From the NCBI GenBank assembly GCA_013265495.1, contig MU058059.1, positions 1,773,502 through 1,837,501 on the forward strand: 64,000 bases of DNA, in the 5' to 3' direction. Below are positions 28,090-55,633 of the stretch, piece by piece; within the stretch, counting starts at the first letter, position 1; each line of letters opens with the position of its first letter. The position numbers and the translations under genes were made by a program. The notes below the pieces were generated by a model. The model ran no database searches, had not been told where the DNA came from, and saw only the letters and a program-made list of their open reading frames with translations. Source of the DNA: Vicugna vicugna. Its lineage: Eukaryota.

Positions 28090-28800
28090 GAATGGCCAAT
28101 AATTAGGGAGTTAAATAGAAGGATTGGCACGTCTGAGTCCTTGTAACAAAACAGAGCATGGGGCTTTTGAGGAACCAAAAGTAGGCTGGTACTGCTAGAG
28201 GAGAGAGGGTGAGGAGAGCAGGGTACATGGCTGTGGCCAGAAAGGCCAGCAGGCTCATATCCTGTGGGCAGTGTCAGGGGTTTTTATTCTTAATCTTAAA
28301 AGCAAGGGAAGGTTGTGGCATTGTTTTCAAAATGGGTTTGTATTTGCATTTGGGAAGAATTAATTTAGTTACAATATGGGTAAATGGATTAGCAAGGGAA
28401 TCAAGAATGGGAAGGCCTGCAGGGAAGCTATTGCAGCAGTTCAGGTGAGAGATGGTGGTAACTTGGACCAGGGTCACAGCAGAGGAGATAAAGAAGGTGG
28501 GCATTTTCCAGAAATAATGAGATAATATCCAGAGAACTTGGGGGTGTGTTGGGTTTGATGTATAAAAGAGAGGGAGGTGTCCATCATGTCTCCTGGGTTA
28601 CTTGCTTGCCACATGGGATAGAGGGCGGGTTTCATGCCCTGGAATGTGGAACACTGAATTCAGAGGCCTGGGTTAGGAGTGAGTGTGGGCAGGTTTGGAC
28701 AGCTTGAGTTTGATGTACGATTGACAGAGCCAAGTAGGTATTGGGTCAGCAGTGGATAAGTGGGGCTGTGACATTCAAAGTTTCACATTTGGCAGCTGGA
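28090..28800. mobile_element. L2 fragment
   Basis: ggaagctattgcagcagttcaggtgagagatggtggtaacttggaccagggt. Confidence 0.7.
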
Positions 28801-30687: not shown

Positions 30688-30905
30688 AAGGAGAGCTTGA
30701 AGCAGAGTGGTTGCAAGACGTGGGTTTGTCAGCCCTGATCTCAGGTGATGAAGAGGAGGACGGCAAAGCCTTGCTCTCTACGCTGACTCGAACCCAAGCG
30801 GCTGCAGTGAAGAAGAGATATAATACTTACACTCAGACCATGAGAAAAAAGAACAAGCACCCTGTCAGGGATGTCAGAGACATCTTTGGAGTCAGCGAGT
30901 CTCCT
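30688..30905 (+). CDS. ARHGAP28: ARHGAP28 exon 3
   Basis: Acceptor tttacag|AA, donor CCT|gtgagt; encodes (E)GELEAEWLQDVGLSALISGDEEEDGKALLSTLTRTQAAAVKKRYNTYTQTMRKKNKHPVRDVRDIFGVSESP. Confidence 0.96.
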
Positions 30906-31962
30906 GTGAGTCATGAACATGCCTCAGAAGGTTTCGTTTGATTGGAGGTGGGAGGGGAGCCTGGAAAAATGTCAGAAAAGGCTCGTCTAGCTGTAAGAGG
31001 AAACTAAAGCAGACAGCAAAGCACAAAATTTTACACATTTCATACTTAAGTGATTATTTCTTATTCTCCATACAGCAGTCTCCCTCCACACTAAATTTAT
31101 TCCCTTCTTTTGAGGCTGGAGGTTAACTTCTTTGGTAATGGAGCAGGTCTTTGTGGATGGGATACACAGAGCCTTTATGAAATTAACCACTGACTGGAAA
31201 CTGGGGACAGGCAAAGGAGTCCCAGAGAAATGGCCAAGTGCTATCAGCAAGTCTGGGTAGTTTGTTTTAAATGTGGCGAAGATGGGAGAGTGGTTAGGGT
31301 ACCCTTTACATTCAAATAAATTGAAATGGTAAAAAGTGAAAGATACAGCATTCATTAAGTGGGCCAGAGGATGATTCAAAAAACCAGAAGGGACACATTA
31401 CATGTTTTCTGAGAAGTGGCTGGTTGAAGTTTCCAGGGCACCCTTGGCAGTTCTGTGGCCACAGCGCTACTTCTGGGTTTGTGAGTCGTGTTCTGTTTCT
31501 GTGTTGGTTTTACTGCTCGCTCTGCCTTGCAGTTCATTTATTCATCCATTTATTGCATCATGACAATGCTGCATTGAGATAATCGCGTCATTGATGCAGC
31601 AAATACTTACTGGATGCATTATCTTCTTCTATCAGGTTCCATGCAGATAGGAGTTTTGGAACTTTGGGGTAATCAGTATGTAGGAAAAGAGGAACTTCAT
31701 ATTCTGCTGTAGCCACACATAGAGTTGCCTGGGGCAGGTTAGTTAATCACTTTGATTTAGGTTTCTCATCTGTTTAATTGTAGTAACAATAATGACATAA
31801 ATTAAAACTTTAAGGATAGCAAGCATGGTTGAAGTCAGTCTCCAATCTGAGTTACTTTAGCTTCTGTAAGTCATATCATCTCTGACATATATTAATCATA
31901 TGGGTTGATGCCAGGGCAGCTCACATACACAGAGTTACCCTTTGCATTTGTGTTAATAATGT

Positions 31963-32182
31963 CCTAGAATAGCATTATCCTTTAGAACTTTCTATATTGA
32001 TGGAAATGATCTATTTCTGTGCTGTCCAGTATGGTAGCCCCCAGTGACACGTGGCATTAGCACCTGATATGTAGCTATTATAAGTAAGGAACTGAAATTT
32101 TAATTGTATTTAATCTTAATCAATTTAAATCTAGGTTGTTACATGTAACTTGTAGCCAGGATATTGAACAACACAGTTCTAG
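31963..32182. mobile_element. MER3/MER33-like hAT-Charlie element
   Basis: ctagaatagcattatcc...tgtgctgtccagtatggtagccc...acgtggcattagcacc...gaacaacacagttctag. Confidence 0.7.
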
Positions 32183-33179: not shown

Positions 33180-34510
33180 AGAAGTTCTTGGAACTGTATC
33201 TAAACTTTTAGCTTTCCTGTTTGAATCTGACAGCATGAATACCGATTCCTCCCTCCGGCCTTCTCTTCCTCCGAGTATTTGTAGCTCCTGATCAGTCTCT
33301 CTGAGTGTGTGTGCCTGTCTTCCCTCCTCCGCCTCCTCCTTCCTTGTATCTCTTCCTAAGTATCTCTTAAATGTTCTGTTGTATTTTCCAGGCTTTCAGT
33401 GTTCTGCATACCTGGCTATTTCTTCAGCTTTATCTTTTATATCATTTATTTGGCCTTGGTTGGTATTAACACTTTTGCCTTTCATTAATTTTCAAAACTT
33501 TAACAGTCATCTTATTTCCTGAAGCTTCTCCTTTCCCTTGATTTTTCCTTTATTTTGTGATCTGTTCTTGTTTCTTGGCTGCTGAAGCCTCTCAGAAGTC
33601 TGAAGTTACTAAATTAAACCTTAAATTCCAAGGCTCTCTTTTTCCCTCGAATTATCTCTTTCCTTCAAGGTCATCTGTTTAATTTTGGCTTCATTACATT
33701 GCTTTTGTTCAGCTGGTGTTGATCCTTGGATATTGATTCATATTCAGTGAGGAGAATTAGATTGATGGATTGATGGATTTGTACAGGTAGTCGTCATATA
33801 TCCTGTGCAGTTGTGCAGACCCATTTTCTCCCAAAAACTCTCCCCCGAAAATAGGAGTCTACGTGAGTGGTGAAGTGTGTCAGTGTCAACTGTCGCACTT
33901 CACTTTAAGACATATAAAAACAACATCAATGCCAAAGTAACAAGGGTCCTGCAGAATCGTAATTTTTTTCCTTTTCAGGCAAGCCTAGCTTCCCTTTTTA
34001 TATTCCTGTCTGTATCCTTTTAAAAAGCCCCAGTAAAGCGCAATTCAGTGTTCTTTCTGTCCAGGACCACCACACCCACGCTAGGACAGCCACTACCACT
34101 CCCAAGGCAGGTGGTCACTCTGTCACCAAGGGGACACTTGGGTTTTATCCTGGAATTACATTTAGCTGCTGCCTGCTGGTCTTCTGAACAGCTGGTGTCT
34201 TCTGAGTCAGGCAGTGCCTTTCTGTTCTTTTTATTTTCATTCTGGTTATGTGCTATTTCCAGATCAGTATTTACCTTCTACACATTTTTTCTCTTGTACC
34301 TACCTTTTTTAGGCTGAGGTTTTCCTCTACCCTTATCAAACCGTTCTTGCTTGCTTTTTATCTTCCAGGAACATCCGACAGTTTCTGTTCTGCTAATGGA
34401 AATGTCTAGTGGTTGCTAGGTCTACTTTTTGTAGAAGTTTTTCTCTCCCTTTTTGAGTGATTTGCAGGGGGAGGAGAAAGTGATACCTGCATTGTGCTGT
34501 GCTGATCCAG
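33180..34510 (-). mobile_element. Highly decayed L1ME-like 5' region
   Basis: T-rich antisense L1-like text; homologous to 38080-39720 (aattatctcttt...gatccttgg). Confidence 0.45.
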
Positions 34511-35029
34511 TTTCCTTATGCTAATTCTTCAGTAGTATTTGTTCCTTCCAAAAAATGTGTTTTTTTCCTTACTGTGAAAATAATACGTAAGCTTTACTGG
34601 AAACTTAGAAAATATGGACAAGCAAGGCAAAGAGTGAGTATTTCTATGGGCCCAAATACAATTTTATGATTTAATTAAGTATCCAGTAAATACAATTTTC
34701 AGTGTTCTAACCATGAAGGAACAGAATATTTCATCCTTGTTCTAGTAGAGCTATTAGACACTACAACACATATGTTAAATCAGACTCTGGATACATAGTA
34801 CATGGTCTGCAGTCCATCTCATTGTGAGCAGAAGTCCAGTGCCCAGACACATTTTTTTCTAATATTCAGAAGATGTATCAGTTATTCCTTTCAGTAACAC
34901 ATTTAATTAAGCAAAATAGTCAATCTAATCTATTTTCAACTTCATAATTGATAGATAGTTAAAGTTAGGACTAACTCCTAATTGACTATATAAATAAAGG
35001 TGTGCAATCATTTTAAAAAGTATTATTAT

Positions 35030-35505
35030 ATCACCTGTATATACATTTGACTGCATGTCACAGAAAACCCAAGAAATCATGAGTTATACAAAGATTTGTT
35101 TTTCTCTCTTTAAGAGGGAACTGAGGGTAGGTGTTCCTGTGTTTTAGCCCAGATCCAGCTTCCTTCTGTCTTTCTATTTTGTCTTTTACATGTGGCCATC
35201 ATTCTTTTGCTTCCCAAGGTGGCTGGGCCACTCCTGCCACCATGTCCATGTTCCTGGCTGTTCCCGGGACTTCTACCAACTGACTCCATCTCTCTGACTT
35301 TGGTTTCCCAGAATCCTTCCTTGGTACAATTCCAGTTACCTCTCATTGCCCAGAAATGTTACATGATCATCTTAGCTGCAAGAGAGCCTGAGAAGTTGAT
35401 TTTTTTTTTTTTGCACAAAGTTTTCTAGAAAAAACAAAAAATCAGGTCTTTTTAAGGAAGACAGACAACTGGGTTTTGGGTGGGCATTTGACAGTGTCTT
35501 CCACA
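35030..35505. mobile_element. Old MLT1-like LTR, copy in duplication unit A
   Basis: tttgactgcatgtcacagaaaaccc...cccaaggtggctg...tctcattgcccagaaatgttacatgatcatcttagctgcaagagagcctgag...cagtgtcttccaca. Confidence 0.65.
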
Positions 35506-35722
35506 GAGACCAGGGTTTATCCTGGTGCCTGGCATGCAGTGGGCGCGCAGTATTGACTTGAGACGGCCAGACGCAGTGACCGGCGCCCGGGCAGTCATGT
35601 CTGTGGCCATGTCAACAGAGCCGTGTGAGTGCACATCTCATGTGCCTGACACGTGACTGACTGCACAGTTACCCTTGGGAGGATACACCTGGATAAAAGT
35701 GCACTTTCATTTTTCTCAATAG

Positions 35723-35814
35723 CCAGGTGACTCTTGTTGTATCCCAGCTCCTCTTATGGACGTGACCCTGGGTGAAGAAGGGATCTCAGCAGTTCCCTGA
35801 GAAATGGTCAACTG
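35723..35814 (+). pseudogene. Pseudoexon paralogous to ARHGAP28 exons 4/5 (92 nt, frameshifted, splice sites intact)
   Basis: actttcatttttctcaatag|CCAGGTGAC...CTG|gtgaga; translates PGDSCCIPAPLMDVTLGEEGISAVP*, 10 of 25 residues identical to exon 5 without gaps; upstream flank is homologous to those of exons 4 and 5. Confidence 0.85.
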
Positions 35815-38800
35815 GTGAGATAATGCAAGGGGACACAAGAGCTTGGAGGTTAGGAAAAGGAGCTATTTCAGGGCAGCCAGGAAAATTTGAGGGGAAAAAA
35901 AAGCCTACTTACCTTATAATAATGAAGAAAAAAAAGACTCACTCAGGAATGAATAATTAAATAGTTAAATCCACAAATAACTATGTGGCCTACCTGTAAC
36001 TGCAGAACAAAAACAAGCAGAGCTGCAACCACAGCCGTGGCCAGAAGTCGGAACGTGGCACCAGTGCTCAGCTAGACTCTTGTCCCCTCTGCTGAGCACA
36101 TGATGGAAAATCTTACGCTACCATACATGTGTCTTTCAATATTAATTGAATTCCCACCATAAGAAATGTTTTGACATTTCAGTTGTTTTCTAAATGTAAA
36201 TATCTTGTGAGGAGCAGCAATGTAGCATCTTAAACATATAACAAGTGGGAAAAAGTGCACTGTCTTGCCAGGAGATATAAACACATTTCATTAAAGCCCA
36301 CGTTGTCCATTTTAGTACAGAATTTCAGAGAGTGCTGATCTGAGTTCAGAAATGCTAGTGAAGCTGTCTCAGTGAAAGAGGTGAATCCCACACTGATATG
36401 TACCTCTTGGCATGAAGCCAGGGTCCTCTTACTGAAGGTGCACCCTGAGTAGGAGACACAGAAGGACCTGGATTTACTGGCATCTGCCTCCACTTGGAGT
36501 CATGGCAACAGAAAATTTACAGTGAGAGACTTTCCTCTGTTATGTTTCTATGTGTGTCCTTCTCTTTAGTTCTTTATTTTTTGTCCTAGCAGAGGAAGAG
36601 GGATTTTTTTGTTGTTCTAAGAGTAACCCCTGTACCATTCTCGATCTAATGAAGATGAAGAGGAGGAGGAGGATGTTTAGATTCTATACAATTTCCTTTC
36701 TTCTTACATGTACTTTGTATGAGGCACTGTATCTGCATCTTACGATTGTCTTGATGCAGGCTAGCCCTTGGTCCCTTCCAAAATTCTGCTCAAGGGTTTG
36801 GATGTGGCGAGTTTGTGTTCTGGCCCCTCTTCTTCTGTTGCCTGAGGGTAGGTCAAGTTCTGGAGGTGAGGCTGTGAGCAATCCTGTTTTTGCCGATTTT
36901 GTCTCTGATTTCATTATATTTCTCATAAGAGTGTGAACTCCATCTTCACGTTTTCTTTTGAGTTGGCAGTAGGTGCCCTCAGGTTTTAGATTGTTCCCTC
37001 AGTGCAGGGAGTCTTCCATACCTTACTTCCAACCAGGACACTTAATCCGAGGTATTTGTTCCTCTGCCTGCCCCATGCCCTTTCACAGCAGCCCCTGCCT
37101 CTCCTCTAGGAGTAGACACGGGGTGTTTTCAAATGACAGGTGTCTATGAGCTTTTTACCCCCTCTGCCTTTACCTTCTGTTTTGATTGTCTGCTCCTCAC
37201 CCAAGGGTTGTAGGGTTGGCTCAACTCAGGACCCCTGACACTGGAGAGATGTGACAACAGTAGGTTATCTGCCACGTATTCTCATAGCCCAGTGGGGAGG
37301 ACACAAACACCACACAGAATCACACCTGGGGTGCACTTGGGAACAGAGTGAACAACCAGGGGTTACGAGAGCCAGGCTGTCTAGTATCAAGAGGGTGGGG
37401 TGCCCCCTGGTTCCCAGGGGAGGACGGGATTGGCTTGTTTGAATAATTCCAGGGGTGGACAGGGAACTGAAACCCACTGCTCAGGGATAAGCAGGAACTG
37501 CGTGTGTCTGGTCCCCTGAATAAGGTGGTTGTCTGGCTAGGGGCCTTAACTGGGGCAGGGTGAGCAGAGTGGGAGGGTACCTTGGGCTTAGATCACTTAC
37601 GGCCCTCTTTACCAGATGTCAAGGCAGCACATATGAGGGAGCCTTGTTTTAGATTGTGTTCCTCACCAACACTCACACCCAGCCTTGGGCTCCCATGGTG
37701 AGTCTAGGCTGGTTCTGTTTCTTTTCTCTTTTATCGCTATCTCTTTCATTAGTTTTTTTGAAGGTTTTGTCATCTTTTAAAAGTTAAAGGCAAGAGTGGT
37801 GCCAAACACGTGAGGAAATCTCCCACTGAGGTGGAAGAGAACAATTAGGTTTTTTTCCAGCCACACCCCTGAGCTACTCACCAGCTTGTAGAATGAGAAA
37901 GTAGTACTGTTCTTTATCAGCAGAGGAGGAGGAGGGCTAGCATAACAGAATGACCACAGGAATAGTAAAAATGTTAATGTGCGTAATCACGTCTGTTACA
38001 AAATGTCACATCTTCTTAGCAGATTGCATCTTTTATCCTTTGAGCAAATCTGGCAAGAAGTCTCTCTGGATACTAAATTTTCATATCCAAAAAGCTAAAT
38101 CCTAAACTGGTGAGTATCAAAATGCTAGGCCCTTAATCATTTTCTTTCAGAAATTTGTAAATAATCTGTTTACTTTTCCACATAATGTTAATGTTGAGAA
38201 ATCTGATACCTCTCTAAATCATTCCTTTATTCATATCCTGTTTTCATTTTTATATTTCTGGAAGCTTTTCAGGTTTATCTTTGTTGTTTGAGACCTAACC
38301 TGTCATCAGGATATGAAATCTTTTTTTTTATTATCATGATCAGTACTTAGCTTTTTGTTTCTAAAAAATGTTCCATTCCTTTCAGTTCTGAACATTTTTT
38401 CCTACTTTTATTTTATTGTAATCTCCATTTTCTCTATTCTAATTGCTTGCATTAAACTCACATATCTCTTCAAGTCACTTATATTTTCCATGCTCTTTTT
38501 CCTGTTTGTTCTGTATGCTAGCAGATTTTTGTCTGCATCATTTTGTAGAAAACTAATTCTGATTTTTGTCATGGGTGGCTGTAATCGGGTCCCTATTGAT
38601 TTTTAAAGTCAGCAATTATACTGTTAAGTCATAAGAACTACTCATTTTTTCACTGATTTCCCTTTAATGTTGTAGTTAGTCCTGATTTATGGTTGCAGTC
38701 GTCTCTCAAATCTAAAATTATTAAATCATTATAAGCCTTTTTCTCTTCCCCTAATTATCTCTTTCTCCCAGAATGTTTATCACCATACTTCTTTTTCAAA

Positions 38801-40259
38801 ATGTTGGTTTTGTCCATGGCTGACTTTTTTATGATGTTGACTTTCTCCAATGGCTGATCCTTGGTGATGGATTTATGTTTATTAATGGGGTGGATTGACT
38901 AATTAGTGACTTCTAGGATATGTCACTGCTGTATGATTTCTCTGCCGTTATATAGATATTTTCCCAAAGGACTCCTTATTGCGTAAGAGGGCTGACTTTG
39001 GGCCCTGTGTGAGTCCGCAAGATGTGTGAACAGTCTGTGAGTGGACATTATTTTAGTAGCACATACGGGTGAGTACATGGGTGTGTGTGTGTAGGCACAT
39101 GTATCCACACACAAATACACACAAGCACACCCCTTCAGTACCAAAGGGAGAGTGGCGAATGACATCATTCCCAGACAAAGCTGATGTTTTTCCCTTTTAT
39201 TCTCCTATCCACGTCTGTCATGAAGGTCCAGAGTGACCTGATGTTGAGGTCTCTTTTGATCCCAACTCTGGACATCTTCCCAAGGCAGGTAGTTTGCTTC
39301 ATTCAAAGTACTTTTCTTGGGTCCGTAATGGCTCCTGCCTGCTGTTCAGTGTAAAGGGAACTGCTGGGAGGTCTGTTGGGCCCCTCCATTGAGCAAGCAC
39401 CTTACAGTAAATTATCCTGACCATTGCTTGGGGCCCCTGCCTGTCCTTTGTAACTTTCTCTCTAAGCTTGGTTGTTTGTTTGCTTTTTGTGGATTTGTAC
39501 TTTCTTTGCCAGCAGTGTTGTCTAATGCTGTTCTGAGACTGAGAGTTTCTCTGCAACTATGAAATAAATTATTTACTTATAATTTTCCAGGAATTTCTAA
39601 CAATTTTTCATCTGTTAGTAGAACATTGCTCGTTTCTAGTGCCCTTCAGAGCTGTTCTTATAAAAATACGCCCTTTGTTTGCTTCTGAGTGGTAGGGAGT
39701 GGTACGCTGTCTGTCCTCCAGGAAAACTTAAGTTTTCTTGTACTGCCTCTTAAGCATTGTTTCCACTTCCAAATAGATGTGTTTTTCATATTAATGTAAT
39801 AATACACATTGGGGGAGAGTTAGAAAATTTGAAAAAGCAAGATGGAAAATAACAGTTTCTAAGGTCTCATGTAGAAGTTTATTTCATTAATACCGTGTGT
39901 GTTTAATTTTGCAAAAGGAGCTTTAATCATAGGAGAGAATATTTGCATATTATTTGGGGCAATGCCATTGTATGACAAAAGCTGCTCAAAATCTTAGCGC
40001 ATATGCACAAGGCCTACAGTACGGTACATCACAGTCAGAATAGTCTCCAAGTACACTTGCTGCATAATGGAAATCAGAGCTTTTCCAGTATTCTGGAATA
40101 CTTGATTCTATGGAATATTTGATTCTATCACATGTGTTTGTAAGACAACAATCTAATGAATTTCCAGTTTCATAATTGAAAAAAAACCTGACTACTCTTG
40201 CCTTTTATTTATAAATCATTGCAAAATACAGTCATAAAGTCAGATTTTGTAGTAGCATA

Positions 40260-40695
40260 ATTCTGTCAGTAAGCTGCATGATTTAGACAATTAGATGTTT
40301 ATTTCCCTTACAAAATAGGAAGTCTGAGTTTGGTATGACTGCTGTCCCCAGCATGGATCTACCTACTTTTTTGTCTTTCTCTTCTGCTCCACTTAGCATA
40401 CCGGCTAATGATTAATGCTTGTAGGATGTCCTGATATCACAGGTACCCTGTCCATGTATTGAAATAAGCATTGCCAGCTGATTCCATCCACTTCAACAAG
40501 AAAAATTAGCCCTCCTGGATGCTCTACCAAGTAGGATTCCACTCTTATCTATTGGACATAAGCATCACATGATCATACTTAGTCCTTTTAGATGGATGCA
40601 CAGCATCTGTCTAAAATCAGGTAAAATCAGGATATTCACATGTTAAGGGAGAAACAAAAAGTGGGTTTTGGCAGGCAGGTGGCCTTGTCTGCTTT
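40260..40695. mobile_element. Old MLT1-like LTR, copy in duplication unit B
   Basis: tctattggacataagcatcacatgatcatacttag...aaaatcaggatatt...gggttttggcaggcag. Confidence 0.55.
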
Positions 40696-40912
40696 TGAGA
40701 CCCATTTGTATTACAGTGCATGACGCTCATGAGGATCAACATTCTTATGGACTAATTGGTGAAAACTGTTAGCATTGCATTATAGTCATGAACTCTGTGT
40801 ATCTCCACATGGCTGCACATTTATACAGATTCTAGTGAAATGTGTAATTGAATAGACAGTCACATTGGGAAAGATATGCCTGGATAAAAACGACTTTCAT
40901 TTCTTTCCGTAG

Positions 40913-41005
40913 CCAGGTGATACCTGTGACAGCCATCCTAGTCAGTCGGATGACACCCGTGAGGAAAAAGAGCTGCCGGGAATTATCAAAACAGGTGGTT
41001 CCTTG
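40913..41005 (+). CDS. ARHGAP28: ARHGAP28 exon 4 (93 nt, phase 0-0)
   Basis: Acceptor ttctttccgtag|CCA, donor TTG|gtaagt; encodes PGDTCDSHPSQSDDTREEKELPGIIKTGGSL; absent from the ORF track and found by manual reading. Confidence 0.9.
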
Positions 41006-42924
41006 GTAAGTTACAGCAGAAGAATTGGGGGTAGGGGTGAAAAAAGAAGCCATTTCTTTAAGACAGTCATGCAAAACTCCAAAGCAATGAAATATAATTA
41101 AGATGGCTGGACACCCACAGCTGTCAACACACCTGTCTACCTTGAACAGATTTGTAGGAAGACATTTAGCAATTAATGAACTGAAGTGTAATAGTTAAAG
41201 CCACAAAAAACTACATGCTCTATAAAAGCAGATACTGCGCGGTGTACTGTTTACACGTATTTACATGCAATATAATGTGTATGCGCAGGTGGACAGTAAT
41301 CATTCTGCATAATAAAACTGGGGGAAAAGCAGGCCCTGTTATCAAACACATTTTGGAAATGCTGTATATCACATCTCCCTCTTACAGATTTAAAATGCTC
41401 ATCACTCTATTAATATCTGAAGGAAGAAGTCTCACGGTAAAGAAAAATTTTATTTCGTTGTTTGACCCTAAACTCCTTTTAAGAAGTAATTGTTAACGTC
41501 CTGTGTTACTGGTACACTTTGGAACCTGTGGAGCACTTTTTGATTAATGCTGCCGTAGGTGATATTGGCACCAGTTAAGATGCTTACCATGATAGGATCT
41601 GTCTTATCATTTTAGAGTGTAGTTTGATTACACAAGAATGGCTTTCTGGATAAAATGTCCAGTAATTCAGGCATCTACTCTGACCATAGTTTCATATTTG
41701 AATTTTAGAGGTACATATAATTTGTCAACAGTATAAAATGACGTAATTTATGTTCCTGGATAATAAGCCTATGTTTAGACAGCATTTGGGGCAAGAAATA
41801 AAGAAACATAGGGTTTTTAAAAAAAAGATACATACTTAGGAAACCAGTTATGGTAGGCATTTCTTTATGACATTTAGTTTCTTTACATTTTTATTTTATT
41901 TAAAAAAATTCTTGTAGAAATGTTGGCTCTGAATCACAGGTCCACAAGGTGTGGACCTCGAGTCACAGCACAGCTGTAGGTGTCCTCAGGTTGTCTGACC
42001 TTTTCCTGGTGCAGGGGGAACACCAGGCACCTTATTTCTGACCACACTCTTCACCCTTAGTGTCCAGTGCCCCTCCTGCTTCCCCATCCCCTGCTTTTTC
42101 CCAGAGCCCCCTCTACTCCCCATTTACCCAGAGGAGCGCGAGGTCAGGCAGGCCCTGGGGGAAAGATCGGGCTTCTGTCAGTTTACAGCTAGGAAAGATT
42201 GCTTTACTTACGGTTTAGCCAGAGCTTTTTCTTGCATCTGTCTTTACTTGCATTTCTGTCCTGAGCTGTCTCTTCTCTCTCGGTGGAGCTTGTGTACTCT
42301 GTTTTCCCCTTAATTTTTCCATCCTCACATTCCCTCTCCTAACTTCCTCCCGGGTAGAAAAATCAAAATGGTGAATCGCAGTAGGTTCCCTCCCCTGCTA
42401 CTGGGGATGGTACTGGGGAGAGACTTCGTTTAAAGGGCTATCTGCACATATTGAACCCAGATATGGTTACTCACACATTCAGTTGTTTTCTCTCATAATT
42501 TGAAGGAAATAGCAGTTGTCTATATCAAAAGTTCCTCCACTTGATGAGGAGGGAGGTGGATTTCGGAGAAGAATTTACTTCATTCCTAGAATACCTCCCC
42601 TCTACCACCGCTCGTGGGAATGCTGCTGGGATTCTTTTCCTATTTTTAGTTGTGTTTTGTTGACTCTACTAGGTTTTAGGAGAGAGAGACTTGGTCATCT
42701 GACTTAACTCTTGCATTATATCCTAGAATGTAATCCCTACTGTTTACAGAAATAACTCCTTTTTATATTAAAATTATCCACAATCTGCTCCCTGCTGATA
42801 TTTCCAACCTTTAGTTCCCTTGACTTAACTAACCGTCCTCTACTTTTGAAAACAAATGAACTTTCTCTTTCAAGAACATACTTTGAGTTTTCCAGCGGTA
42901 AAATTTTTTTAGTCTTTTCTCATC

Positions 42925-43730
42925 TTTTAAAATGGGCAAAAGGTTTAAATAGACACTTCAGCAAGGAAGACTCATGGATGAAAAACCATCTCATGGGAAG
43001 TGCTCAGTATCATTAGTGATTATGGAAACGCATATAAAGCCACAGTGAGATGTCTCTATAAACCTTGTCAAAGGGCTAAATTTACAAAGACTGACCATAT
43101 CGATTGGTACTAAGGATGCAGAGTAACTGGAACTCTCATACGTTGTTGGTGGGAACGTAAATGGCCCACACGCTTTGGAAAATAATTTGGTAGCTTCTTA
43201 AAATACTAAACCTGGGCCTACCACAGAGACCCAGCCATTCTACTCATAGATAATGTATATTCATACAAAGATCTATTCACAAATGTTTATAGCATAATAG
43301 CCCCAAGCTGGAAACAACCCAGTTTTATCTACAGGTAAATAGATGAACAAACTGTGATATATTCATACAATGGAATATTTTTCAGCAGTAGAAAGCAGTG
43401 ATACACACAACATGGATGGATCTCAAAACAAGCATACCATGTGAAAGAAGCCAGACAAAGAAAGATTTGACTTAGATGAAATTATAGGAAGTCTAAACTA
43501 ACCTATATCGAGGGAGAGGTCAGTGATTGCCTGGTGGGTGAGGAGGGGAAGGAAGCAGACATGACAGAGGGGCAGGAGGACATTTCAGAGTGCTGGCTTT
43601 GCTCATTGTCTTGACTGGCAATGGTTTCATAGGTCTAGATATTTTTCAAAACACATCAAATTGTATACTTTATACTCTTTAAATATGTGCAGTTAATTGT
43701 ATGCCAGTTATACCTCAAGAAACCTTTAAA
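42925..43730 (+). mobile_element. L1 3' end (L1ME/MB-like), sense orientation
   Basis: aaaatgggcaaaaggtttaaatagacacttca...aactggaactctcatacgttgttggtgggaa...aattgtatgccagttatacctcaa. Confidence 0.85.
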
Positions 43731-44139
43731 AAGAGTCCATATAATATTTTATGGTTTCATTACTATCCAACATACTTCTTTTGCAATAAGCTACTTATAA
43801 TAAAGGAATTGTCCATTCACGTATTATATGTGGTTGAGTCTTGACTGTAAATCACAAATGCCACAAAATCTGGGCATTTACAAAAGATTTATTTAGAAAA
43901 GGTATATAACCCAATCTACAGTCATCACAAACTATCCTACAAATCACTTGTATAGATAAAAGAAAACATTTCCCTATGTGTCATCAACATAAATGTTAGT
44001 CATTTGAGGTGTTAGTTTACTCAAAAGGCAAAGTAGTCGATCTAGTTTATTTCCAATGTCTTAAGTGAAAATCAAATAGCTATACTTACTATTGATTCAT
44101 AGTTCACTGCAAAATACAATCATACCATCTGTCAAAAAT

Positions 44140-44480
44140 TATCACTTACAGCTGTATTTGCTTTATAGAAAAGAAAATCTGGGAAACCATGATTTAAACA
44201 AGTAGGAGTTTGTTTTAATCACAAAACAAGCCAGGCTGGTACAAATGCAGTGGCAATCTTAGCATAAACATCTAACTTTCTCCTTTCATGCTGCCACCAT
44301 AGCATATGGATTTAATTCTTATACTTACAAGATGGTTAGCAAACTCTGGATACCATGCTGATGTTCCTGTTAGGGACATGTGCCAACTGACTGTTCATTA
44401 TTAATGGAAAACCTTAGCTCTCCTGAAAAACCTGTGCAGTAGAATTTCTCGTGTTGCTCATTGACCTACAGTTGCACTCT
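44140..44480. mobile_element. Old MLT1-like LTR, truncated copy in partial unit C
   Basis: Follows cactgcaaaatacaatcata as in the other units; gatttaaacaagtaggagtttg, caagatggttagc, gctcattgacc. Confidence 0.45.
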
Positions 44481-46211
44481 TAAATGACACTATTTGGGTT
44501 TCTTTTCTAATTTTGGTTGCCTGAATCTTACTCCTTTATAAGTAAGCTTTTTTTGTTTGCCCTCTCTGCACCGTTTTTTGAATTTTTGAATTTGAATTTT
44601 TTGCTGGAGTTCTGAACTTTTACAGGCATCTGCCTCTTGGTTCATTCATCTTGGTGACGGCTTAGTGAGTTCTTTCCTAAGAGCTGTTCTTTCTTTGACT
44701 TCTGGACATTGTCTTCTGTTATGTCTTAAATTATTTTTTTCTCTCTGTTTTCTATGCCCCCATTCTTCTAGAACATGTAGTAAATGGTTCTTGCTTTGCT
44801 TGAATTGAATTTCAGTATCCCCTACGTTTTTTTTTCATGTTAGTCTGTTTACTCTGATTTCTTCATCTTTATATTCCAGATTAGTAATTTTTTTTCTTGG
44901 TTATGATTCTGGTTTTTTTTTAGCTTGTCTCACTCCTTGTAAATTTCAGCAATGATATTTTTTTTTCCCAAAAACAACTTTTTTTCTCTCTGATTTACCG
45001 ACTATGGCAGCTGTAGTTTGTTGATTCATAGCAGCAATAGCCCCTTAAATCACTCGGAAGGTGAGAATTAAATTATTTTTAAGAAATCCAAATTACACAT
45101 TTGGATTGTTTCCAGTTTTGAGCTATTGTGAATAATGCTGCTGTGAACATTCCATGTAGTATAAAGGATGTGTATTCTCATTTCTTCTTGGTAAAGACGC
45201 AGCGTAGTTCAGATTGTTGGCAAACAAGCCACGTTCAGCCCTATCACCGATAGCTTTTAAACTCGGCAAGGAATAATTCGATAGGTAAATCAAAAATAGC
45301 TAAATTCTGTCTTTTAAAGAAGCATTTAACAGTAACAACAACAACAGAAACTTTTTTTTTAACATGTATCTTAAATGGAGGATGTTGTCAGTTAAGCTTG
45401 ATCCTTCTGGGTGAGCTTATACAGAAAAATAACAGACTACCATGTAAATCTTTTTTCAGTGTTTTCAGTATCAAGTAAGATACAAATATTTAGGTTTTTT
45501 CCTAGTACTTTCCAAATGTAAACGTCTTGTGTGGAGAACATGTTAACTTTGGGAATGTGTAGCAATAAGTGATAGAACAGTGGAGTTCTGCCTGAATGAA
45601 AGTACCATCTGACCAGGCCAGTGCACATCTCCCATTGGGCCGCAGCAGATGCCCGTGTTGTCTTCAGTACAGGGAGAGCTTCTGACTGAGACTGTGGATC
45701 CTCGGTGTTTTTTCCTGTCCGCCTTCTCAGTCCCTCCACCATACCCCGTCTGTCAGAATCCTGTCACAGCAGGAAGATGAGATGAGCCAGCAAAGGTTCC
45801 ATCTCAGGAAGCGCAGGGTGGGACGTGTTCATGAGGCAGGAGGTACCAGCACACTTTCAGGCAGAACTCCACCTTCCTGGGCCCCTACAGGTCTCTGCAG
45901 TCATGGGGCAAGTCTTCAGTGATTTTTGATTGATTACTGTAGGAAATTGCATAAGTTTCCTCTGCAATTGAGTAGATCAATTTTCCTAAAAGGCCAAAAT
46001 TGTTGATTGTGGTTTTGTGAGTGAGTGCCGTGTACTTAACTTTGAGGTGCGTAGAGGGGGAAGGTAGGTTAGTAAGCTCTCCTCACATGCAAAACAGTGA
46101 AGGGAATGAAGAGCTCTTCTTCATTCCAGGAAAAGCTAATGTCATTTTTCAGTCTCCCCTCCATGTCTTTGGTTGTGGTCTCCTGAGGTCCTTCTCTCTT
46201 AGACCTCTATA

Positions 46212-46499
46212 CAGTCCTCCCTCAGTATCCACAGGGGATTGGTTTCAGGACCCCCCAGGATACCAGAATCCATGGATGCCCAATCCCCTTATATAAATGG
46301 CATAATACTTGCATATAACCTACACACACCCTCCTCTATACTTTGTCATCTCAAGATTACTTCTCTGTAAATGGTTAAGGGCATGTGCAAAATTCAAGTT
46401 TTGTTTTGGGGAACTTTCTGGAATTTTTTTTTCAAATATTATCCATCCAGGTTGGTTGGATCTGCAAATGTAGAACCCAGGGAGGCAGAGGGTCAGCTG
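46212..46499 (+). mobile_element. MER2-like TcMar-Tigger element
   Basis: TA|cagtcctccctcagtatcc...gcagagggtcagctg|TA; terminal inverted repeats and TA target duplication. Confidence 0.85.
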
Positions 46500-47314
46500 T
46501 ACTCAAACTAGGAGTGCACATCCCCCCAAGGCAGTTAGTTCATTTCACTTAGACTGAATTTTGGTGGGGGGTTTCTAGGGTTGTATCTAGGGGCTGTCTG
46601 CATATTAAGGAGAGATGGTCCAGTTGGCTTCTAATTTGCAAACAAGTCTTAAAGCTGTTGCCTCTGGCCCTTTCCTGCTCTTTGTGCATCCTGTTACTTG
46701 TTTTTCTCTGCTTTCTCTAGAAATTTTCCTTTGTGCTGTTTCATGTAGAGGTTTTTATTTTACCAAACCAATTCTGTTTGCTTTTCATTCAGAAATTCCT
46801 AACAGTTGGTCTGCTGTGGAATTCTTTGCTTGTTTTTAGTGCTGTTAAAAATCTGTTCCTTTAAAAAATAAATGTTTTCTGCCATTTTTAGTGATTTGGG
46901 GTGGGAGGGGAGTTAGATGATTGTCAGGCTTGCCATCTTGACGTAAAACACAAGAAGTAGCACAGAAATTTATTTGTTCCTTTAAAGAAAAAAGAGTCCT
47001 TTGTTCATTTTATACAGTAATGCATACTGTTTATAGAAGATTTAGAAAATACGGTCAAGGAAGATGAGTGACAGTTTTTTAAAAGACAAAATTAATCAAA
47101 TTTAGTATCAGATATATTCAGTTTTGCAATAAGATTCCTTCAGTAAAGAAAAGAATATTCGTGTCTTAATTTCAGTAATGACATTTTGCACTAAAGCAGA
47201 AATCTTGTACTTCAAGCCTTATAAATGAAAAAAACTATTTGGTGCTATTGCTACTGAATTCTAATCACTGCAAAATACAGTTATAGGGTCTATTAAAAAA
47301 ATAAGATTAGACAA

Positions 47315-47761
47315 GTTAAGTATGTGTTTGGTTGCATGTAATAGAAAAGTAGGAGTTGCTTTGGTTCATATGGAGATGCTTAAGGGGGGTGGTCCAAGCC
47401 TGAGAGGGCAGCCACATGATGCACAGACCCAGCCATCTCTGCCATCCATCATCCTCATGGGAACAAGGAGCCTGCCAGCTCCAGGCTGTCATCTGTGCTG
47501 CTGTCATGAGCAGGTATGAGCTGACCCCATTCTTTTGGTCAGGAAAGCCATAACTTCTCTAGAAGCACTCTTGGTAAAATCACATTTCCACCTTGTTGAC
47601 CACACTTGTCACATGATCACTGTTAGCTGCACAGATCACTGTTAGCTGCACAGAAGCCTGGAAATCAAGTTCTTTGGTTGAACACCTAACTCCCTGAAAC
47701 AAAACCAAGATCTTTTTAAGGAAAATGGAGTTGCTGGCAGGCAGGAGCAGTGTCCGCCACA
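47315..47761. mobile_element. Old MLT1-like LTR, copy in duplication unit D
   Basis: tttggttgcatgtaatagaaaa...gctccagg...gtcacatgatcactgttagctgc...gcaggcaggagcagtgtccgccaca. Confidence 0.6.
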
Positions 47762-47930
47762 GAGGCCAGAGTCTAGCAGGGGGCTCACAATGATGATATC
47801 TGAAGGGCTGGTGCAGGTGCCCGTGATAACCTTGTATATTGCCACGCATATCTGAGTATATACACGAGGTGGCATACACAGGAGACAGCATTTGCCTGAA
47901 TAAGAATGGTACTTTCATTTCTCCATTTAG

Positions 47931-48020
47931 CCAGATGATGCTTCTCTCAACAGTACTACCTTGTCAGATGGGTCCCTGGATGAAGAAGAGGGTTTTGCAG
48001 TTCCGAGGAGTGGTTCCGTG
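47931..48020 (+). CDS. ARHGAP28: ARHGAP28 exon 5 (90 nt, phase 0-0)
   Basis: Acceptor ctccatttag|CCA, donor GTG|gtaagt; encodes PDDASLNSTTLSDGSLDEEEGFAVPRSGSV. Confidence 0.93.
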
Positions 48021-50739
48021 GTAAGTCATGCATGCCAAGACAGTTGCATGTCAGGACAAAACTGCAAGTTCAAGGCAAGAAGAAGCAGTTTCTTCAAAAC
48101 AGAGGAGAAAACATTGAACTAACATTGCAAGGTAAACCAAAGATACCAGTAGACCCACCAACCTTGTAACAGGAAGAAGGAGGCTTAAAACAGAATGAAT
48201 AGACTTCAGTTTAAAAGAGGACTGCATAAATTAATACCACTGCTACACTCAGAAACCAAAGGGTGTTCTCTAAAGCATCAAGCATGGTGGAATTTGTTAA
48301 CTTTGGTCCCCTTGGCTGAGTTCATGCAAAGGATCTGTACTAATTCTGCCATCTTAACTTAGAAGTCCTTTTACCTGCAGGATAAATTAAAATTTCCTCA
48401 TCCTGATATTGAAGGCTCTCCACTGTTGCCTACATACCCAGTGTTAGATCTCAGGACTCACTCATACAAACCCTCCACTTCAGACAAATTCACTCACTTG
48501 GCCTTGAGTAATGGAACTTCTACTTTTCTTTGTCTAAAACTGTCTTTTTCCCCCGTCTCCTCCCTTCCACTGGGCATCCCCACTTGGTGTCCCTGTGCAG
48601 AAGCTCTGCAGGGGTGACATAATGGACCATAAGTAAGAGACCCTGCTGGATGAGGTAGCGATTCTCCAATAAAAGGCGATGGAAGGGAGCAGATAGCAGG
48701 GCAGATGGGCAGATGGAGGGGGCACATTCAGTGTCCCAGGGGCAGTAGCTTCTCATCTGTTGTGCAGTTTGATAGACAGGGTAGGCGACATTCTCCCAGG
48801 ATAGCCCCACTGTTCAGGGAGAGAATGCTGTTAGCCCCATGTGAATGAGCTTTTCTGTTGTGTTTTCAAATTTTTGGTTATGAGGTTGTTTTGTTTGTCT
48901 CATGGTGATCATAGAAGAAGCATAAAATAATGTGAGTGACTTTTGTCAAAAGCACTACAGGTACAGCACACATAGGCTAAGAGTTACTCACAACTTCTGA
49001 CGTACTAGCCTTAAATTCAGCTGTCACTTCCTGGTTAAGACCACCCACTGGAATGCAGATGAGTGAGGATATCTCTGTTTTAGAGATAATCTCCAGTCCA
49101 CCCTCACTGATGAAAACAAAGTCAGTCAGTCACAAACTCTGGTAACTCCTAGAAATGAGGGGTTACCTGTAGTAGTCCTTACACGGTTGTGCTGTGCCCC
49201 TGTAATGAAGAACTCCTATTCTAAGTAAGGCCTGGCCCAGGAGCCTTCCTTTTCGGTCTCAGCTGGTGGTATCTGTGTCCAGGACTCAGCTCTAAGTGTT
49301 CTCCTCCCCTCCGCCTGGCTTCTCCCCTCTACGTGCCCATCTCTGAGACCTGTGGATTTCATCTCATCTGGTAAATAGTTCTAGAAAAGTTTTACTCCCC
49401 TCTTTTCCTGCAACTACTTCTTAGTGCAGAAACTCATCATCATCTTTCTGTGTTACTGAAGCAGCTGTCTAAGTGATCTCCCAGACTTTAGCTTATACCC
49501 TCCCATTTTACCCTCCTTGCAACTGCAAGTCATCCATCTGAAGTGTGAATCTTGCTTAATGCCTACAGCGTTTCCCCCAACACTTTCTAGTTAATGTGAG
49601 AGCTCCTGATGTAGTCTGACCCCTCGTCTGCCCCTAGCTGACTTTGCCTTTCATATAAGCAACAAGAAAGTACACTGAGTGGTTCCATGCACAGACAAAG
49701 CAGAACTTGAAGCAGGATGTCCGCACAGTTGAGCTACTAAGAAGAGGGGGTTGCGTAGGCCTGTTTTCTAGACTTTCCATGGCAGTTCCATGACTGCAGT
49801 TCCACTGCTAGTAGACCTTTGCTAGTCATGTTTTTCTATTTCTTCATTCTTTGCTGCTTGCTTCTCTATGTTACTGTTTCATTGATTCACTCATTTATTC
49901 AGTCACCAAATCCTCACAGAGCACACATTGTCTACAAATGGATTCTTGAAAGTTTAAGAGTGTATGAGAAAGAAAATGATCTTGGATGGCAGCTGTAGAT
50001 AGAGCTTCCTGGGGTAAATTAATCAGATTTCAATTTTGTTTTCATTTTGTTTTTCAGAAAACTGATTGAATGTTGATAATGACATAAGTAAAATTTCAGC
50101 AGTGTTGAGACTCAAAAAATTTTCATTGGTACCAGTCTCAAGTGTGACTTGCTTTGGATTGTTTGTTACTTAGAATATCTTTACTTAGAAATGTTTAAAA
50201 AATTGATTAGTTGCTGAAGTAGCCCACAGATGCCAATTCAAGCCTTTCTGCACATGTACTGAGAATCATTATGGAACTTCTTACCATGAGGTAGATACAG
50301 TTTGACTTCCTTGCTTCTCGGTTATAATGAGCCACCTCTGTTTGGTTCTCCAGTCTGTCCTAGATGGTGGATTTCCAGTAACTCAGTGAATGGTGGTGAG
50401 GGCTTCCAGGTTCTGGCTGTGATGCTCATAGAGGAAAACCCCACAGACAGTTTACTGTCGTCTCCGAGGCTCCAGAGGCTCCCAGCAACTTGCACTGTTA
50501 GAATTCATGTTGTGGAATAGGCAGTAGTAGGCAGCCTAACTTTATCTTTTCCAAGGGGTAACCTTGTCTTGACCAGTACCTTTCTTTTTCATCTTTTCTA
50601 CTTGTTTGATTTGCACTTTTATGATAAGTGGAATCTCTACATACACAGGGTCTATCTAAATGACTATGGCTCTATGGTTTGTTTATTTAAATCTGCTACA
50701 GTAAGTTCACCCTCACCGTTCTGAATCAAAATCTTCTTT

Positions 50740-52720
50740 CTTCTCAGAAATTTTTTCTTTCAGCTGAACCTTATAATAATGCTATCACTACCCATTAAAA
50801 AATCTTGGTAGGACTCCACTAAGAATTCTGTTGAATTTAAAGATTAATGTTGGGGAGGGAATTCGTATCTGAAAATATTGAGTCTTCCCATTGGGAAATA
50901 ATGATTGTGTCTTCCCACTTATTTGTATCTTCTGTGCTTCAATAAAATTCCATACTTTCCTTTCTTAACGTTTTTTCTTACATATTTTTTCATTGGTTAA
51001 TTACTAGGAACGTAATAGTTTCATTGGTGTTTTAAATGGTAGGAGTTTTTCATATCTTCCAGTTTGTTTTTGTGGGTACATAAGAAAGGCGTTTGTTTGT
51101 TTCTCACAAAAGTATCTCGTATCTTTCTTTCTGAAAATTTTTTTATCTCTTAGAATTTTTCATTTGATTTTATTCTTTGTGCAGAAATTGTCTAAAATAC
51201 TGAAAGTTTTGTTTGCACCAACTTTAAAATGCAGTTGGACCTCCTTATTTGTAGGTTCTGCACCCGTGGATTCAGATTGAATTGAAATTCAATTGAAAAT
51301 ATTTGGGGAAAAAATTTCAGAAAGTTCCAAAAAGCAAAACTTGAATTTGCTGTATACCAGCAACTATTTATATAACATTTACATTGTATTAGCTGTTATA
51401 CGTAATCTGGAGAGGCTTTAAAGTATACAGAAGGATGTGCATAGGTTACGTGCAAATACCACACCTTTTTATATAAGGAACTTGACTATTCATGGATTTT
51501 GGTATCCTTGGGGGTTCTGGAACAATCCCCCATGAATACCAAGGGACGATTGTAGTTATTCATCTTATTTACTTTCCTTATCTTATTAGACTGATCACAA
51601 TCACTTATAACATTGAATAATAACTGTGAGGATATTTTGATACATTTTTAATTGTCTCTGTTTCCTTGTGAGTTCTTCTAAGTTTCATTATTAAATAGAA
51701 TATTTGTTCTGGGTTTCTGAGCCTTGTAGTTGCTTTGATCAAGAATAGAGGTTGAATTATATCAAATGATTATTCATAATTTATTAAAATGAATATATTG
51801 GTTTTCATCTTTAAAAGGCAATTGCCTTAGGTGATTACATTGATAGGTTTTTCTAATGTGAACTGTAGTTTCGCTGCTTTGTTAAACCACACTTGTGTTA
51901 CATTATTCTTTTCTTACACTACTGAATATGATTCGCTACTGGTTTAGCATTTTAACCACTATTGTAATAGTGGATTAACCTATATATATATAATTTATTT
52001 TTGTTGTTACCAGAGTTATGCTAATCTTGGTACAAACATGTTGAGAACTTAGGATTTTTTCAGTATTTTGGAGCTGTTTATTAAACTTTGGTGTAAATAT
52101 ATAATCTGTAAAAACTGTTATGCATAATTTTATGCCAAGGTCTAGCATCATTGTAGGCCTAATGCTTTGGTTAATTTTTCAATGAATATGGCTTAAGGAT
52201 TATATTTCTTTGAGTCCCAACTTGTATGAATTTTGTTAGTGTGTATTTGTTTTAGTAAAATATCCAATTCATTTAGAGTTTCAATATGTGGTGTGTGTGT
52301 ACATATATACAAATACATGCACACACTTATTTAGGTGTATAATTTTAAAATTTTCTGTGAAGGTAACTATTATTCCTTTTTTGTTCCTAAAATTTATATC
52401 TTTTATCTCAGTCAGAACTGTAAATACTTGCCTGTGTTGGCAATAATTCTTTTAAAAAGTCACTACTTTTAACTAACTAGTCTACTTTTTCTATTGTGTT
52501 AACTTATTTAATTCTCCTTAATTTTTTTCATTCATTTTTGGATCTACTTGGATAATTTTTTCTTGTCTCTTGTATTATAAATATTTAATTTTAAACTTTG
52601 TTATTTGCATTTAAGATTAAGAAGTAATCTCTGAATAATACTTTGGCTATTCCCTTGGATTTTTGGAATTTATTGCTCTCATTGTCTTTAATGTTTTGTT
52701 TATAATTTCAGATATGATTC
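50740..52720 (-). mobile_element. Highly decayed L1 fragment with nested MER2
   Basis: gttgaatttaaagattaat...aatattgagtcttccca, gttgaattatatcaaatga antisense ORF2-like text. Confidence 0.6.
51232..51552 (-). mobile_element. MER2-like TcMar-Tigger element, inverted relative to the 46212 copy
   Basis: The reverse complement of its end (caatcgtcccttggtattcatgggggattgttccagaacccc) matches the start of the 46212 copy; aaagttccaaaaagcaaaacttgaatttgc core. Confidence 0.85.
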
Positions 52721-52848
52721 AGTTTTTAATCCAAGATAACATCACAATGCCTTTAGATTCACATTTGGATAGATGTAATTGTTATTATACTTTAAATTTC
52801 AAATTGATTGCAGATTTGTCAGTGAATGTGGCTTATTTAAGTTCATCT

Positions 52849-53072
52849 ATGGGGAATTTGGCACAGTGGTTGCAAGATGTGGGTTTATCTGTCCTGATCT
52901 CAGGTGCAGAAGAGGAATATGGGGAACCTTATCATCTGTATTGACTCAAGCACAGGCAGCTTTAGTATATAGAGTTATATATTATATAGCACATAGGTTC
53001 AAACCAGGAGGGAAAAACCAAACAGCCAGTAAGGAAGATCAGAAACACCTTTTGAGTCAGTGCATTTTTCCT
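52849..53072 (+). pseudogene. Degenerate duplicate of ARHGAP28 exon 3
   Basis: AQWLQDVGLSVLISGAEEEYG vs exon 3 AEWLQDVGLSALISGDEEEDG (40/45 nt identical over the first 15 codons); then indels and stops, with LTQAQAALV and QPVRKIRNTF*VS remnants; acceptor AG not retained. Confidence 0.92.
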
Positions 53073-54949
53073 GTTAAGTAGTGAACATGGAAAATATTTG
53101 ATATGATGTTTCTTTACTGTGAAGGAAATACCAGATTGTCAAAGTCTAGTTTTAGGAGAACTCAGTCATACAGTGCTAATAAACTACATTGTGGAATTTC
53201 AGGTAATAATCTCTCAACCTCGACTCTCCAATCCCAGTACAGTATGATGTGGGCGCTGGTGGCTCGGAGTCTGTGCTTCTCCTTAACCAGTTGAAGCCCC
53301 AGTGACACTCTTGTGCTTTGCTGTGTAGGGAGATGCTTTTCCCTTAAGGACAAGCAGGGAAGTTTGTCTTAAATGGGAGTGGTATTTATGTTTGAAATAC
53401 ATTAAAATCACTAGTAAAAATTTTTTAAAGGTTCTAATGTTAATGTGTGTAATGACAAATGGATCTTTTTAAACTATGAATACCAAGCAACTAGCCTTTT
53501 CACTCAACCTGTTTGAAAACTTGAGGTTTATTGGCAGAGAGATCTGCCTTTTCATTTTCACCCAGTCCTTCCCTGGCTTTAACACGTGCATGTTCTTTTG
53601 TTTGTTTTGTTGTGTTGCATTTTAACCCTTACAAATCTAAATCTGAACACCTGGCTTTCAAAACTTTCTTGACTAATGTATTTTTCTAATACCTTGTCTT
53701 AACTCCTGGCAAAGGAGGCTCTCTGATCCTCTTATGAAGCTGAAAGGCTTCAGATTTCCATACCTGACCTGTGTAATTCCGAGGCTAGCCTGAGTGCCTT
53801 GCCTGCCTTCTGTGCCTTCGAAAGTCGTTTTCATCATTCCTCGAGTTCTAGCACAAGGTCAGCCACCTCTTCCTCTTCATTACTCTCCAGTAAACGCTTA
53901 CAGGGGTATTGTAGAAGTTAGCTGTTATCAGTGGATTGTCCTCTAACCGTGTTCCGTAAATATCACTCTCTTCTCCTCATCATAAATAGCTGAAGAGCTA
54001 CTTATTCCTGCTTCCCCCTAAGAAAGTCCCAGGATAATCGTCATTACGAAGAGCCAGGCGCTCATTCAGCACTATAGGTCGGCTGGAGGCCAGTTAAACT
54101 AAGACAGCAGGTAACCCTTCTCCACTTTACAGATTAGGAAATGGACATTTAGTAGATTCAAGCATCCCAAACCATCGGCTTCAAGCCCTATTTGAATGTC
54201 TCTCAGTTTTCAAGAGTTCTCGCCCATAGATGAGTTATTGCAAAGTTTGATAAAGTATTTCTTTGTTGGAAAACTTAAGGAAACTACTGAAAAGAGTTCC
54301 GGGTCTTTTTTAAGGATTTTAGTATCCTATAGTGTTGGTTTTTCGAACTACCAGTTACATAATTGGGCATCTGTGTTTTAGTAATTGGCTATGTATTCAC
54401 ATCCTGTTTACACAGTAAGATGTGTCATCTCCTTTGGAATAAAATTGGGGAGAGAACCCAAAGCTCAGCATTCGAGATTCCCGTGTGCAATTTATATGCC
54501 ATGATAAAAGATCTTTCACGAGGCAGGTGTTCTGTTCATATTGCTAAATAAATATGAGAATAAAAGAAACAACACCAGGCTCTGGGGAAAAACAACAGGC
54601 CGACGTGTGAAGAGCATGTAGAAGATTCTTGGTGGAATGGCAGCTCTTCACCCTCACACATACACACAGCTGATAACTTCCACTCAGAAGTTTACATTGG
54701 TACAAACGGTAGGTTTTGTGTGTAAAGGTTTTACCAGTACCCATCCCACCTGAGCAGTATCTCACTTCACAGGGCCCTACAAAGATGGATACTCAGCTTC
54801 TGGTAACATCGCAGGGGAACACAGTGCTTTGGCAGGATTGCAGTGAGGAAAGTAACTAATTAAGAGAGGAAACTAAGCTAAAAAACATACTTACTGTTTG
54901 GTAGTTATCACTCTATTTCATAGCGAAGAGATTTATATATTAATACATT

Positions 54950-55548: not shown

Positions 55549-55633
55549 TCTATCCTTGAGACTATTCCAGACACACCAGTTCACTCCAATGGATCAGCAG
55601 ACCCTGGACAGTCAGTTCAGAACGCAGTGAGTG
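55549..55633 (+). CDS. ARHGAP28: ARHGAP28 exon 6
   Basis: Acceptor tttcacag|TCT, donor G|gtgagt; encodes SILETIPDTPVHSNGSADPGQSVQNAVS; phase 1 fits the next exon. Confidence 0.92.

Follow-up and report, generated by a model that had tools for sequence, protein, structure and literature searches.

We analysed a 64-kb window of Vicugna vicugna DNA (contig MU058059.1, forward strand) and found that exons 4 and 5 of ARHGAP28, a cell-shape gene, belong to a tandem array. Three exons, here called A, B (exon 4) and C (exon 5), lie in tandem copies of one 2-3 kb block and are, with high probability, paralogous; they likely go back to one founder exon, likely intron-derived, that was copied in the placental stem lineage. 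All coordinates are positions in the window. The gene is camelid ARHGAP28, since the translation of 30690-30905, within the ancient exon 3 (30688..30905, plus strand, end phase 0), matches Vicugna pacos ARHGAP28 (P0001) at 100% identity and the Bactrian camel protein at 99%. The exon 4 peptide of the window agrees with alpaca ARHGAP28 records, not with camel ones. In P0001, exons 4 and 5 encode residues 200-260 and the RhoGAP domain spans residues 417-564 (Pfam).

Unit A (33361..36320) consists of a repeat-like upstream part, a long terminal repeat (LTR)-like segment, exon A and a downstream flank. It is collinear with unit B (38463..41245), unit C (45926..48326) and a partial fourth unit, X, all on the plus strand. 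We compared the window with itself by blastn, nhmmer tiles and local alignment with the HOXD70 matrix, and found units A, B and C to be collinear and 62-65% identical over 2-3 kb. The local HOXD70 alignments paired 33361-35992 in A with 38463-41222 in B (1498/2396 identical positions), and 34064-35955 in A with 46491-48201 in C (998/1536). For the tiled scan the cut-off was 2300, and the maximum among 676 reversed-sequence controls was 1925. When the units were compared part by part, 22 of the 24 comparisons scored above every one of 200 dinucleotide shuffles. The two exceptions, and the weakest links, were exon A against exon B alone, where 1/200 shuffles reached the score (A-C and B-C, 0/200), and the LTR-like segments of C and X (7/200).

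Between the LTR end and a point 300 nt beyond the exon, the three pairs scored 5332-6060, with shuffle maxima of 1775-2125 (0/200 shuffles in each pair; z 25-32). We also compared the intron-only flanks of eight exons. The flanks of A, B and C scored 1923-3121 among themselves, and the remaining 25 pairs reached at most 1360 on either side; in this control, the flanks of five other ARHGAP28 exons showed no likeness to those of A, B and C or to each other. Because the unit flanks align far above shuffles while the flanks of other exons do not, exons 4 and 5 are best read as paralogs. A profile of exon plus flanks matched only A, B and C across the 64 kb.

Exon B (40913..41005, plus strand) has 93 nt and exon C (47931..48020, plus strand) has 90 nt. 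Both are phase 0-0, have intact AG/GT sites and are contained in P0001. Exon A (35723..35814, plus strand) is a 92-nt pseudo-exon in the window, with AG/GT sites present, a frameshift and an in-frame TGA. Pairwise identity of the exon DNA is 57-63%. The peptides were compared by hhalign, giving E values of 1.4e-3 for A-B, 2.1e-4 for A-C and 4.6e-4 for B-C, and all aligned in register from the first residue of the exons. Each of the three peptides carries 5-6 acidic and 1-2 basic residues.

Many of these features had been described in a first-pass annotation of the window. The anchors lie where it had put them, with the ttagaaaat...aag block at 34605, 39820 and 47042. The LTR-like segments end at the junctions it had named (ccaca-gagacc at 35505, ctttt-gagacc at 40696, ccaca-gaggcc at 47761), the acceptor block with tag-CCAG is present in all three units (35723, 40913, 47931), and its sizes and phases for exons 4 and 5 are those given above. 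It had proposed collinear homology in the spacer and exon flanks as the test of duplication, and our self-comparison found such homology. Its proposal that exons 4 and 5 are paralogs made by duplication of a repeat-plus-exon block is supported by the DNA flanks and by the in-register protein profiles. The recurrent ordered unit that it described stands, but the units are longer than it had drawn them, starting near 33.36, 38.46 and 45.9 kb, and the partial fourth unit has to be added.

The array was dated from the exon content of gene models, with a presence cut-off score of 62. The eutherian sample comprised 252 records, 230 of them with a parsable linker; the other 22 (intron read-through fragments or regex misses) were omitted, and so was the platypus fragment P0560, which is without the linker region. 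Exon content in the 230 records was BC in 138, C in 32, ABC in 26, B in 22, AC in 2, AB in 2 and none in 8. Models of elephants, sirenians, tenrecs and the elephant shrew have exons B and C, and the dugong has A too. No exon of the A/B/C type was found in 25 marsupial models (9 genera), 5 monotreme models (2 genera) or 131 non-mammal models, including those of birds, reptiles and amphibians, and the best score was at most 36. In the marsupial and monotreme records, a single linker exon comes immediately after exon 3, and the linker has 46 amino acids in 30/30.

Since the dugong carries all three exons, A, B and C predate the split of Afrotheria and Boreoeutheria, so the whole exon set would have arisen after the marsupial split and before that divergence. 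The first-pass annotation had predicted at most one such exon outside eutherians; the count is zero in the marsupial, monotreme, bird, reptile and amphibian models, and Afrotheria and Boreoeutheria have both exons. Because outgroup models have zero such exons rather than one, the founder exon itself was likely placental-born. This suggests that an exon was born and then copied, rather than an old exon merely doubled. The copying claimed earlier is therefore upheld, but the founder was likely a new exon, and the exon of the first unit, here 92 nt with an in-frame stop, is coding in the models of many other placentals.

As sources for A, B and C, exons 3 and 6 found no support: neither matched them in DNA, and exon 6 did not match in protein either. 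Exon 6 (55549..55633, plus strand, phase 0-1) is orthologous to the one linker exon that marsupials and sauropsids have; its hhalign probability with the outgroup linker exon is 93% (E 3.4e-7). It has no detectable kinship to A, B or C, with an hhalign probability below 4% for exon 6 of either group.

Further duplicated sequence was identified around the three units. Two plus-strand remnants represent unit X. The first (43995..44466) contains the pre-LTR flank together with a portion of the LTR-like segment and matches A, B and C (profile E 1.4e-11; flank 0/300 shuffles). The second (45261..45672) is a downstream flank, identical to 35941-36320 at 227 of 359 positions (0/300 shuffles); its match to C is weak (1/300) and that to B non-significant (52/300). 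No exon was found between the two remnants, the exon-flank profile matching A, B and C alone. The intronic block S (31430..32030, plus strand) has a homologous copy, S' (49765..50322, plus strand; 329/511 identical, 0/300 shuffles). Exon 3 has a decayed, frameshifted genomic copy at 52826..53235 on the plus strand (254/361 identical, about 70%; nhmmer E 8.6e-24), which includes the donor site and a piece of the intron that follows; the intron-only part is weak (7/300 shuffles reach the score). Additional copies of exon 3 or block S were not found at E <0.02. Comparison of the region after exon 3 with the regions after unit C and after the exon-3 copy was non-significant (99/300 and 69/300 shuffles).

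Kimura two-parameter (K2P) distances were 0.45-0.54 for all six unit pairs, 0.51 for S/S' and 0.39 for the exon-3 pair, the lower value being consistent with one exon-3 copy staying constrained. The similar distances across the unit pairs and S/S' point to several duplications within one time window.

Other repeats were observed in and near the array. A short block is common to the ends after units A and B (36966-37106 and 41973-42121; 0/300 shuffles) and may be a further unit remnant or a separate repeat. An inverted pair (46210-46504 and 51227-51554) has about 68-78% identity, and its first copy interrupts unit C; presumably these are two copies of one DNA-transposon-like repeat. Intron 2 contains an 85-nt direct repeat (28010-28094 and 29531-29618) at about 80% identity, closer than the array units and probably younger or constrained.

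The LTR-like segments of units A (35025..35505), B (40240..40696) and C (47295..47761) are tentatively placed on the minus strand, and their left ends are approximate. They are homologous to one another and to the segment in X; the LTR-flank junction on the right is common to three units, and LTR-like sequence occurs at the corresponding place in four. At the right end, A and C have ccaca (antisense TG), and B has an altered sequence. Inspected by eye for a target-site duplication, the four left ends have no clear copy of the right flank. Elsewhere in the window the segment has one weak extra match (17647-17739, E 0.31). A small tandem duplication of about 20 nt is located within the segment of unit C (47613-47652). 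We take the segment, in this orientation, to be an MLT1 (ERVL-MaLR) LTR and the upstream unit parts, with the ttagaaaat anchor, to be LINE-1 remnants; both labels are tentative. Most MLT1 families, and most non-primate-specific MaLR members, are reported to be widespread in eutherians and absent from opossum (PMC10735291). The date of the array agrees with the MLT1 label but does not need it, because the array is dated by the presence and absence of its exons.

Other histories of these exons were weighed. The duplication could have proceeded as described from a founder that was an older exon, such as a diverged copy of exon 6 or an exon acquired from a different gene, or that came from a piece of a transposon. 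The exon-3 copy nearby indicates that old exons were duplicated at this locus, very fast change of the gene on the placental stem could mask homology, and the end of exon A resembles, by eye, part of the outgroup linker exon. However, the neighbourhoods of exon 6 and exon 3 gave no DNA match to the units (101-241 of 300 shuffles scored equally), the peptides show no relationship to exon 6 of either group by hhalign, and the phases differ (0-1 in exon 6, 0-0 in A, B and C). We consider such a founder unlikely. A different order of events, in which an intron block carrying cryptic splice sites was first duplicated and its copies were exonised separately later, would explain why the exon pairs are no better conserved across units than their flanks. 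Yet the three exons have an identical acceptor position, a near-identical donor position, one frame and in-register peptides, and three independent choices of identical sites are less economical, which makes this order distinctly improbable.

It could also be argued that the same repeat families were inserted separately next to generic splice consensus, so that the exons are not paralogs at all. Much of each unit looks repeat-derived, and alignments between separate old repeats in other parts of the window have 58-64% identity. Separate insertion is nevertheless already largely refuted, and we give it hardly any credence, because order, orientation and junctions are common to the units, the homology spans the LTR end, the exon and 250 nt further, and only three units in 64 kb match the exon-flank profile, the flanks of the other exons being unlike.

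We favour the birth of one exon and its copying within tandem blocks. Several points weigh against this history. Taken one by one, the matches between peptide profiles are weak (hhalign probability 18-46%), and the K2P values are rough, being taken from local alignments. The order of blocks is exon 3, S, A, B, X, C, S', exon-3 copy and exon 6, for which one simple tandem unit needs extra deletions. Presence and absence were read from gene models, mostly predicted, so that a marsupial precursor may be unannotated, and the sample is without any xenarthran. Inclusion of exon A is known from annotation models alone. The repeat identities are tentative, and when nine frames translated from the repeat-like upstream parts were scanned with Pfam, 0 families were returned.

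The three exons have had different fates among placentals. Exon A is contained in 0/17 camelid protein records. In its intact form (93 nt, 31 residues) it is present in gene models of 12 placental species (30 records): dog, two foxes, elephant seal, two pangolins, two horseshoe bats, little brown bat, black rhino, hippo and dugong. It was found in none of the rodent, rabbit, primate and treeshrew records sampled. Exon B was found in 0/17 vesper-bat records, and the Miniopterus and Phyllostomus models have a shortened exon B (gene models only; these bat records fall within P0456-P0467 and P0550-P0555). Taken together, the gene models suggest that exon A was lost in camelids and that exon B was apparently lost in vesper bats. 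In seven species carrying all three, mean pairwise identity was 0.82 for A, 0.71 for B and 0.84 for C, and that of exon 3 was 0.99. The curated mouse protein NP_766552.3 (P0523) and the Logan-contig proteins P0545, P0555 and P0467 carry the sequence of exons B and C, or of C, and there are RNA runs that contain exon 5. Since the exons are symmetric, their inclusion or skipping preserves the frame. Their combination in models is additive, not mutually exclusive, with two or three copies in 168 of the 230 parsed eutherian models.

An AlphaFold model of the fox isoform with all three exons (32-row alignment) placed A-C at residues 200-291, flanked by a helical module on the N-terminal side (about 127-182) and by the folded region on the C-terminal side. 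Residues 183-330 have a predicted local distance difference test score (pLDDT) below 50 and are without secondary structure. The role of the exons, as modelled, would most likely be that of a disordered spacer, variable in length and charge, perhaps with binding or phosphorylation sites. Mouse Arhgap28 inactivates RhoA, and the isoform difference described for it is C-terminal (PMC4161385).

We propose the following series of events. The ancestral intron 3 would have acquired old repeats, an LTR-like element among them, and an exon of 90-93 nt with phase 0-0 would have been born 170-220 nt past the LTR end. Rapid tandem duplications, probably by unequal crossing-over, may have followed, and at least one event would also have copied exon 3 and block S. 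Extra copies of a symmetric exon in a predicted disordered linker would stay in frame and be tolerated, and the exon-3 copy, with 218 nt and not symmetric, would have decayed. As additive cassettes, the exons would now lengthen by 0-92 residues the stretch that joins the N-terminal helical module to the RhoGAP region. Single copies would later have been lost by lineage, as A in camelids and apparently B in vesper bats.

The gene itself changed quickly on the same branch. Rates were estimated on a fixed topology of 19 species from 589 gap-free columns, plus a 215-column cut of the GTPase-activating protein (GAP) region. The eutherian stem measured 0.394 substitutions per site and the marsupial stem 0.033 over the 589 columns; in the GAP-region cut the values were 0.657 and 0.016. 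Identity in the GAP region is 59% between alpaca and opossum, 87% between opossum and frog, 95% between alpaca and dugong and 94-95% among placentals, and the eutherian sequences still nest within ARHGAP28. On these estimates the GAP domain changed by about 40% on the placental stem, in a burst followed by stasis. The GAP-coding exons begin near 60168 in the window. Eutherian-stem acceleration of ARHGAP28 was previously reported, with a ratio of nonsynonymous to synonymous substitution rates (dN/dS) of 0.39 vs 0.10 and a sixfold longer branch in amino-acid terms (PMC11350913). That this acceleration is concentrated in the GAP domain was not found stated in the accessible portions of that paper. 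The main text of PMC11350913 does not describe the exon array: it lacks the string 'duplicat' and uses 'exon' only inside the definitions of the expression units FPKM and RPKM. The acceleration and the array fall on the same branch, and a shared long branch is no proof of a causal link.

A bolder interpretation, possible but in our view doubtful, is that an intron-born exon amplified to three cassettes was one element of an adaptive remodelling that ARHGAP28 underwent in the placental ancestor, along with the rewriting of about 40% of the GAP domain. Inclusion of 0-3 cassettes would now tune RhoGAP activity, partners or location, and losses, of A in camelids and probably in Euarchontoglires and of B in vesper bats, would reset the range by lineage. 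On the observations themselves, the locus provides an unusually well dated, stepwise build-up of coding sequence, in which likely birth, tandem amplification and lineage loss can be read at 62-65% identity. To the acceleration already published for ARHGAP28 in the placental ancestor, the array adds a structural aspect. It likewise highlights exon A, a conserved coding exon absent from the sampled rodent, rabbit, primate and treeshrew records.

Tandem exon duplication, intron-derived exons and the acceleration of ARHGAP28 are known, whereas the array, its likely new founder exon and the third exon are apparently new. Literature searches that paired the gene with evolution or splicing topics yielded no report of the array, though the exons might be listed in the query-target tables that belong to PMC9013439 (Ivanov & Pervouchine 2022) or in the supplements to bioRxiv 10.1101/009282. 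ARHGAP28 is absent from the searched supplements of PMC9741552, PMC8373072 and PMC2592719. Tandem exon duplication is cited for about 10% of animal genes (PMC9013439), and this process and internal gene duplication were treated by Kondrashov & Koonin 2001 and Gao & Lynch 2009 (cited via bioRxiv 10.1101/009282). The ARHGAP28 array resembles the cases in the accessible part of PMC9013439 in its adjacent homologous exons of one gene, shared strand and phase and copied intron flanks, an unannotated or decayed copy included. It differs in that its founder has no counterpart in outgroup models, and shared repeat junctions together with presence and absence date the event. In that study exonerate found nothing below 57%, so that the ARHGAP28 copies lie near its detection limit.

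Mutually exclusive tandem exons (Martinez Gomez et al., PMC8373072, PMC9741552), as described in the accessible sections of these papers, are likewise homologous cassette exons from tandem duplication. In ARHGAP28, by contrast, the exons co-occur and belong to a linker predicted to be disordered rather than to a domain. NRK shares with ARHGAP28 its eutherian-only exons and an amino-acid burst on the eutherian stem (PMC8857918). Its new exons are not described as mutual copies in the portions of that paper available to us, and NRK function has been shown, whereas the role of the ARHGAP28 exons is only predicted. New exons from unique intron sequence (bioRxiv 10.1101/009282) have in common with the ARHGAP28 founder the likely intronic origin of a new internal exon. 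According to the available part of that preprint, duplicated exons were excluded and most young exons are non-coding, whereas those of ARHGAP28 are coding, conserved and amplified.

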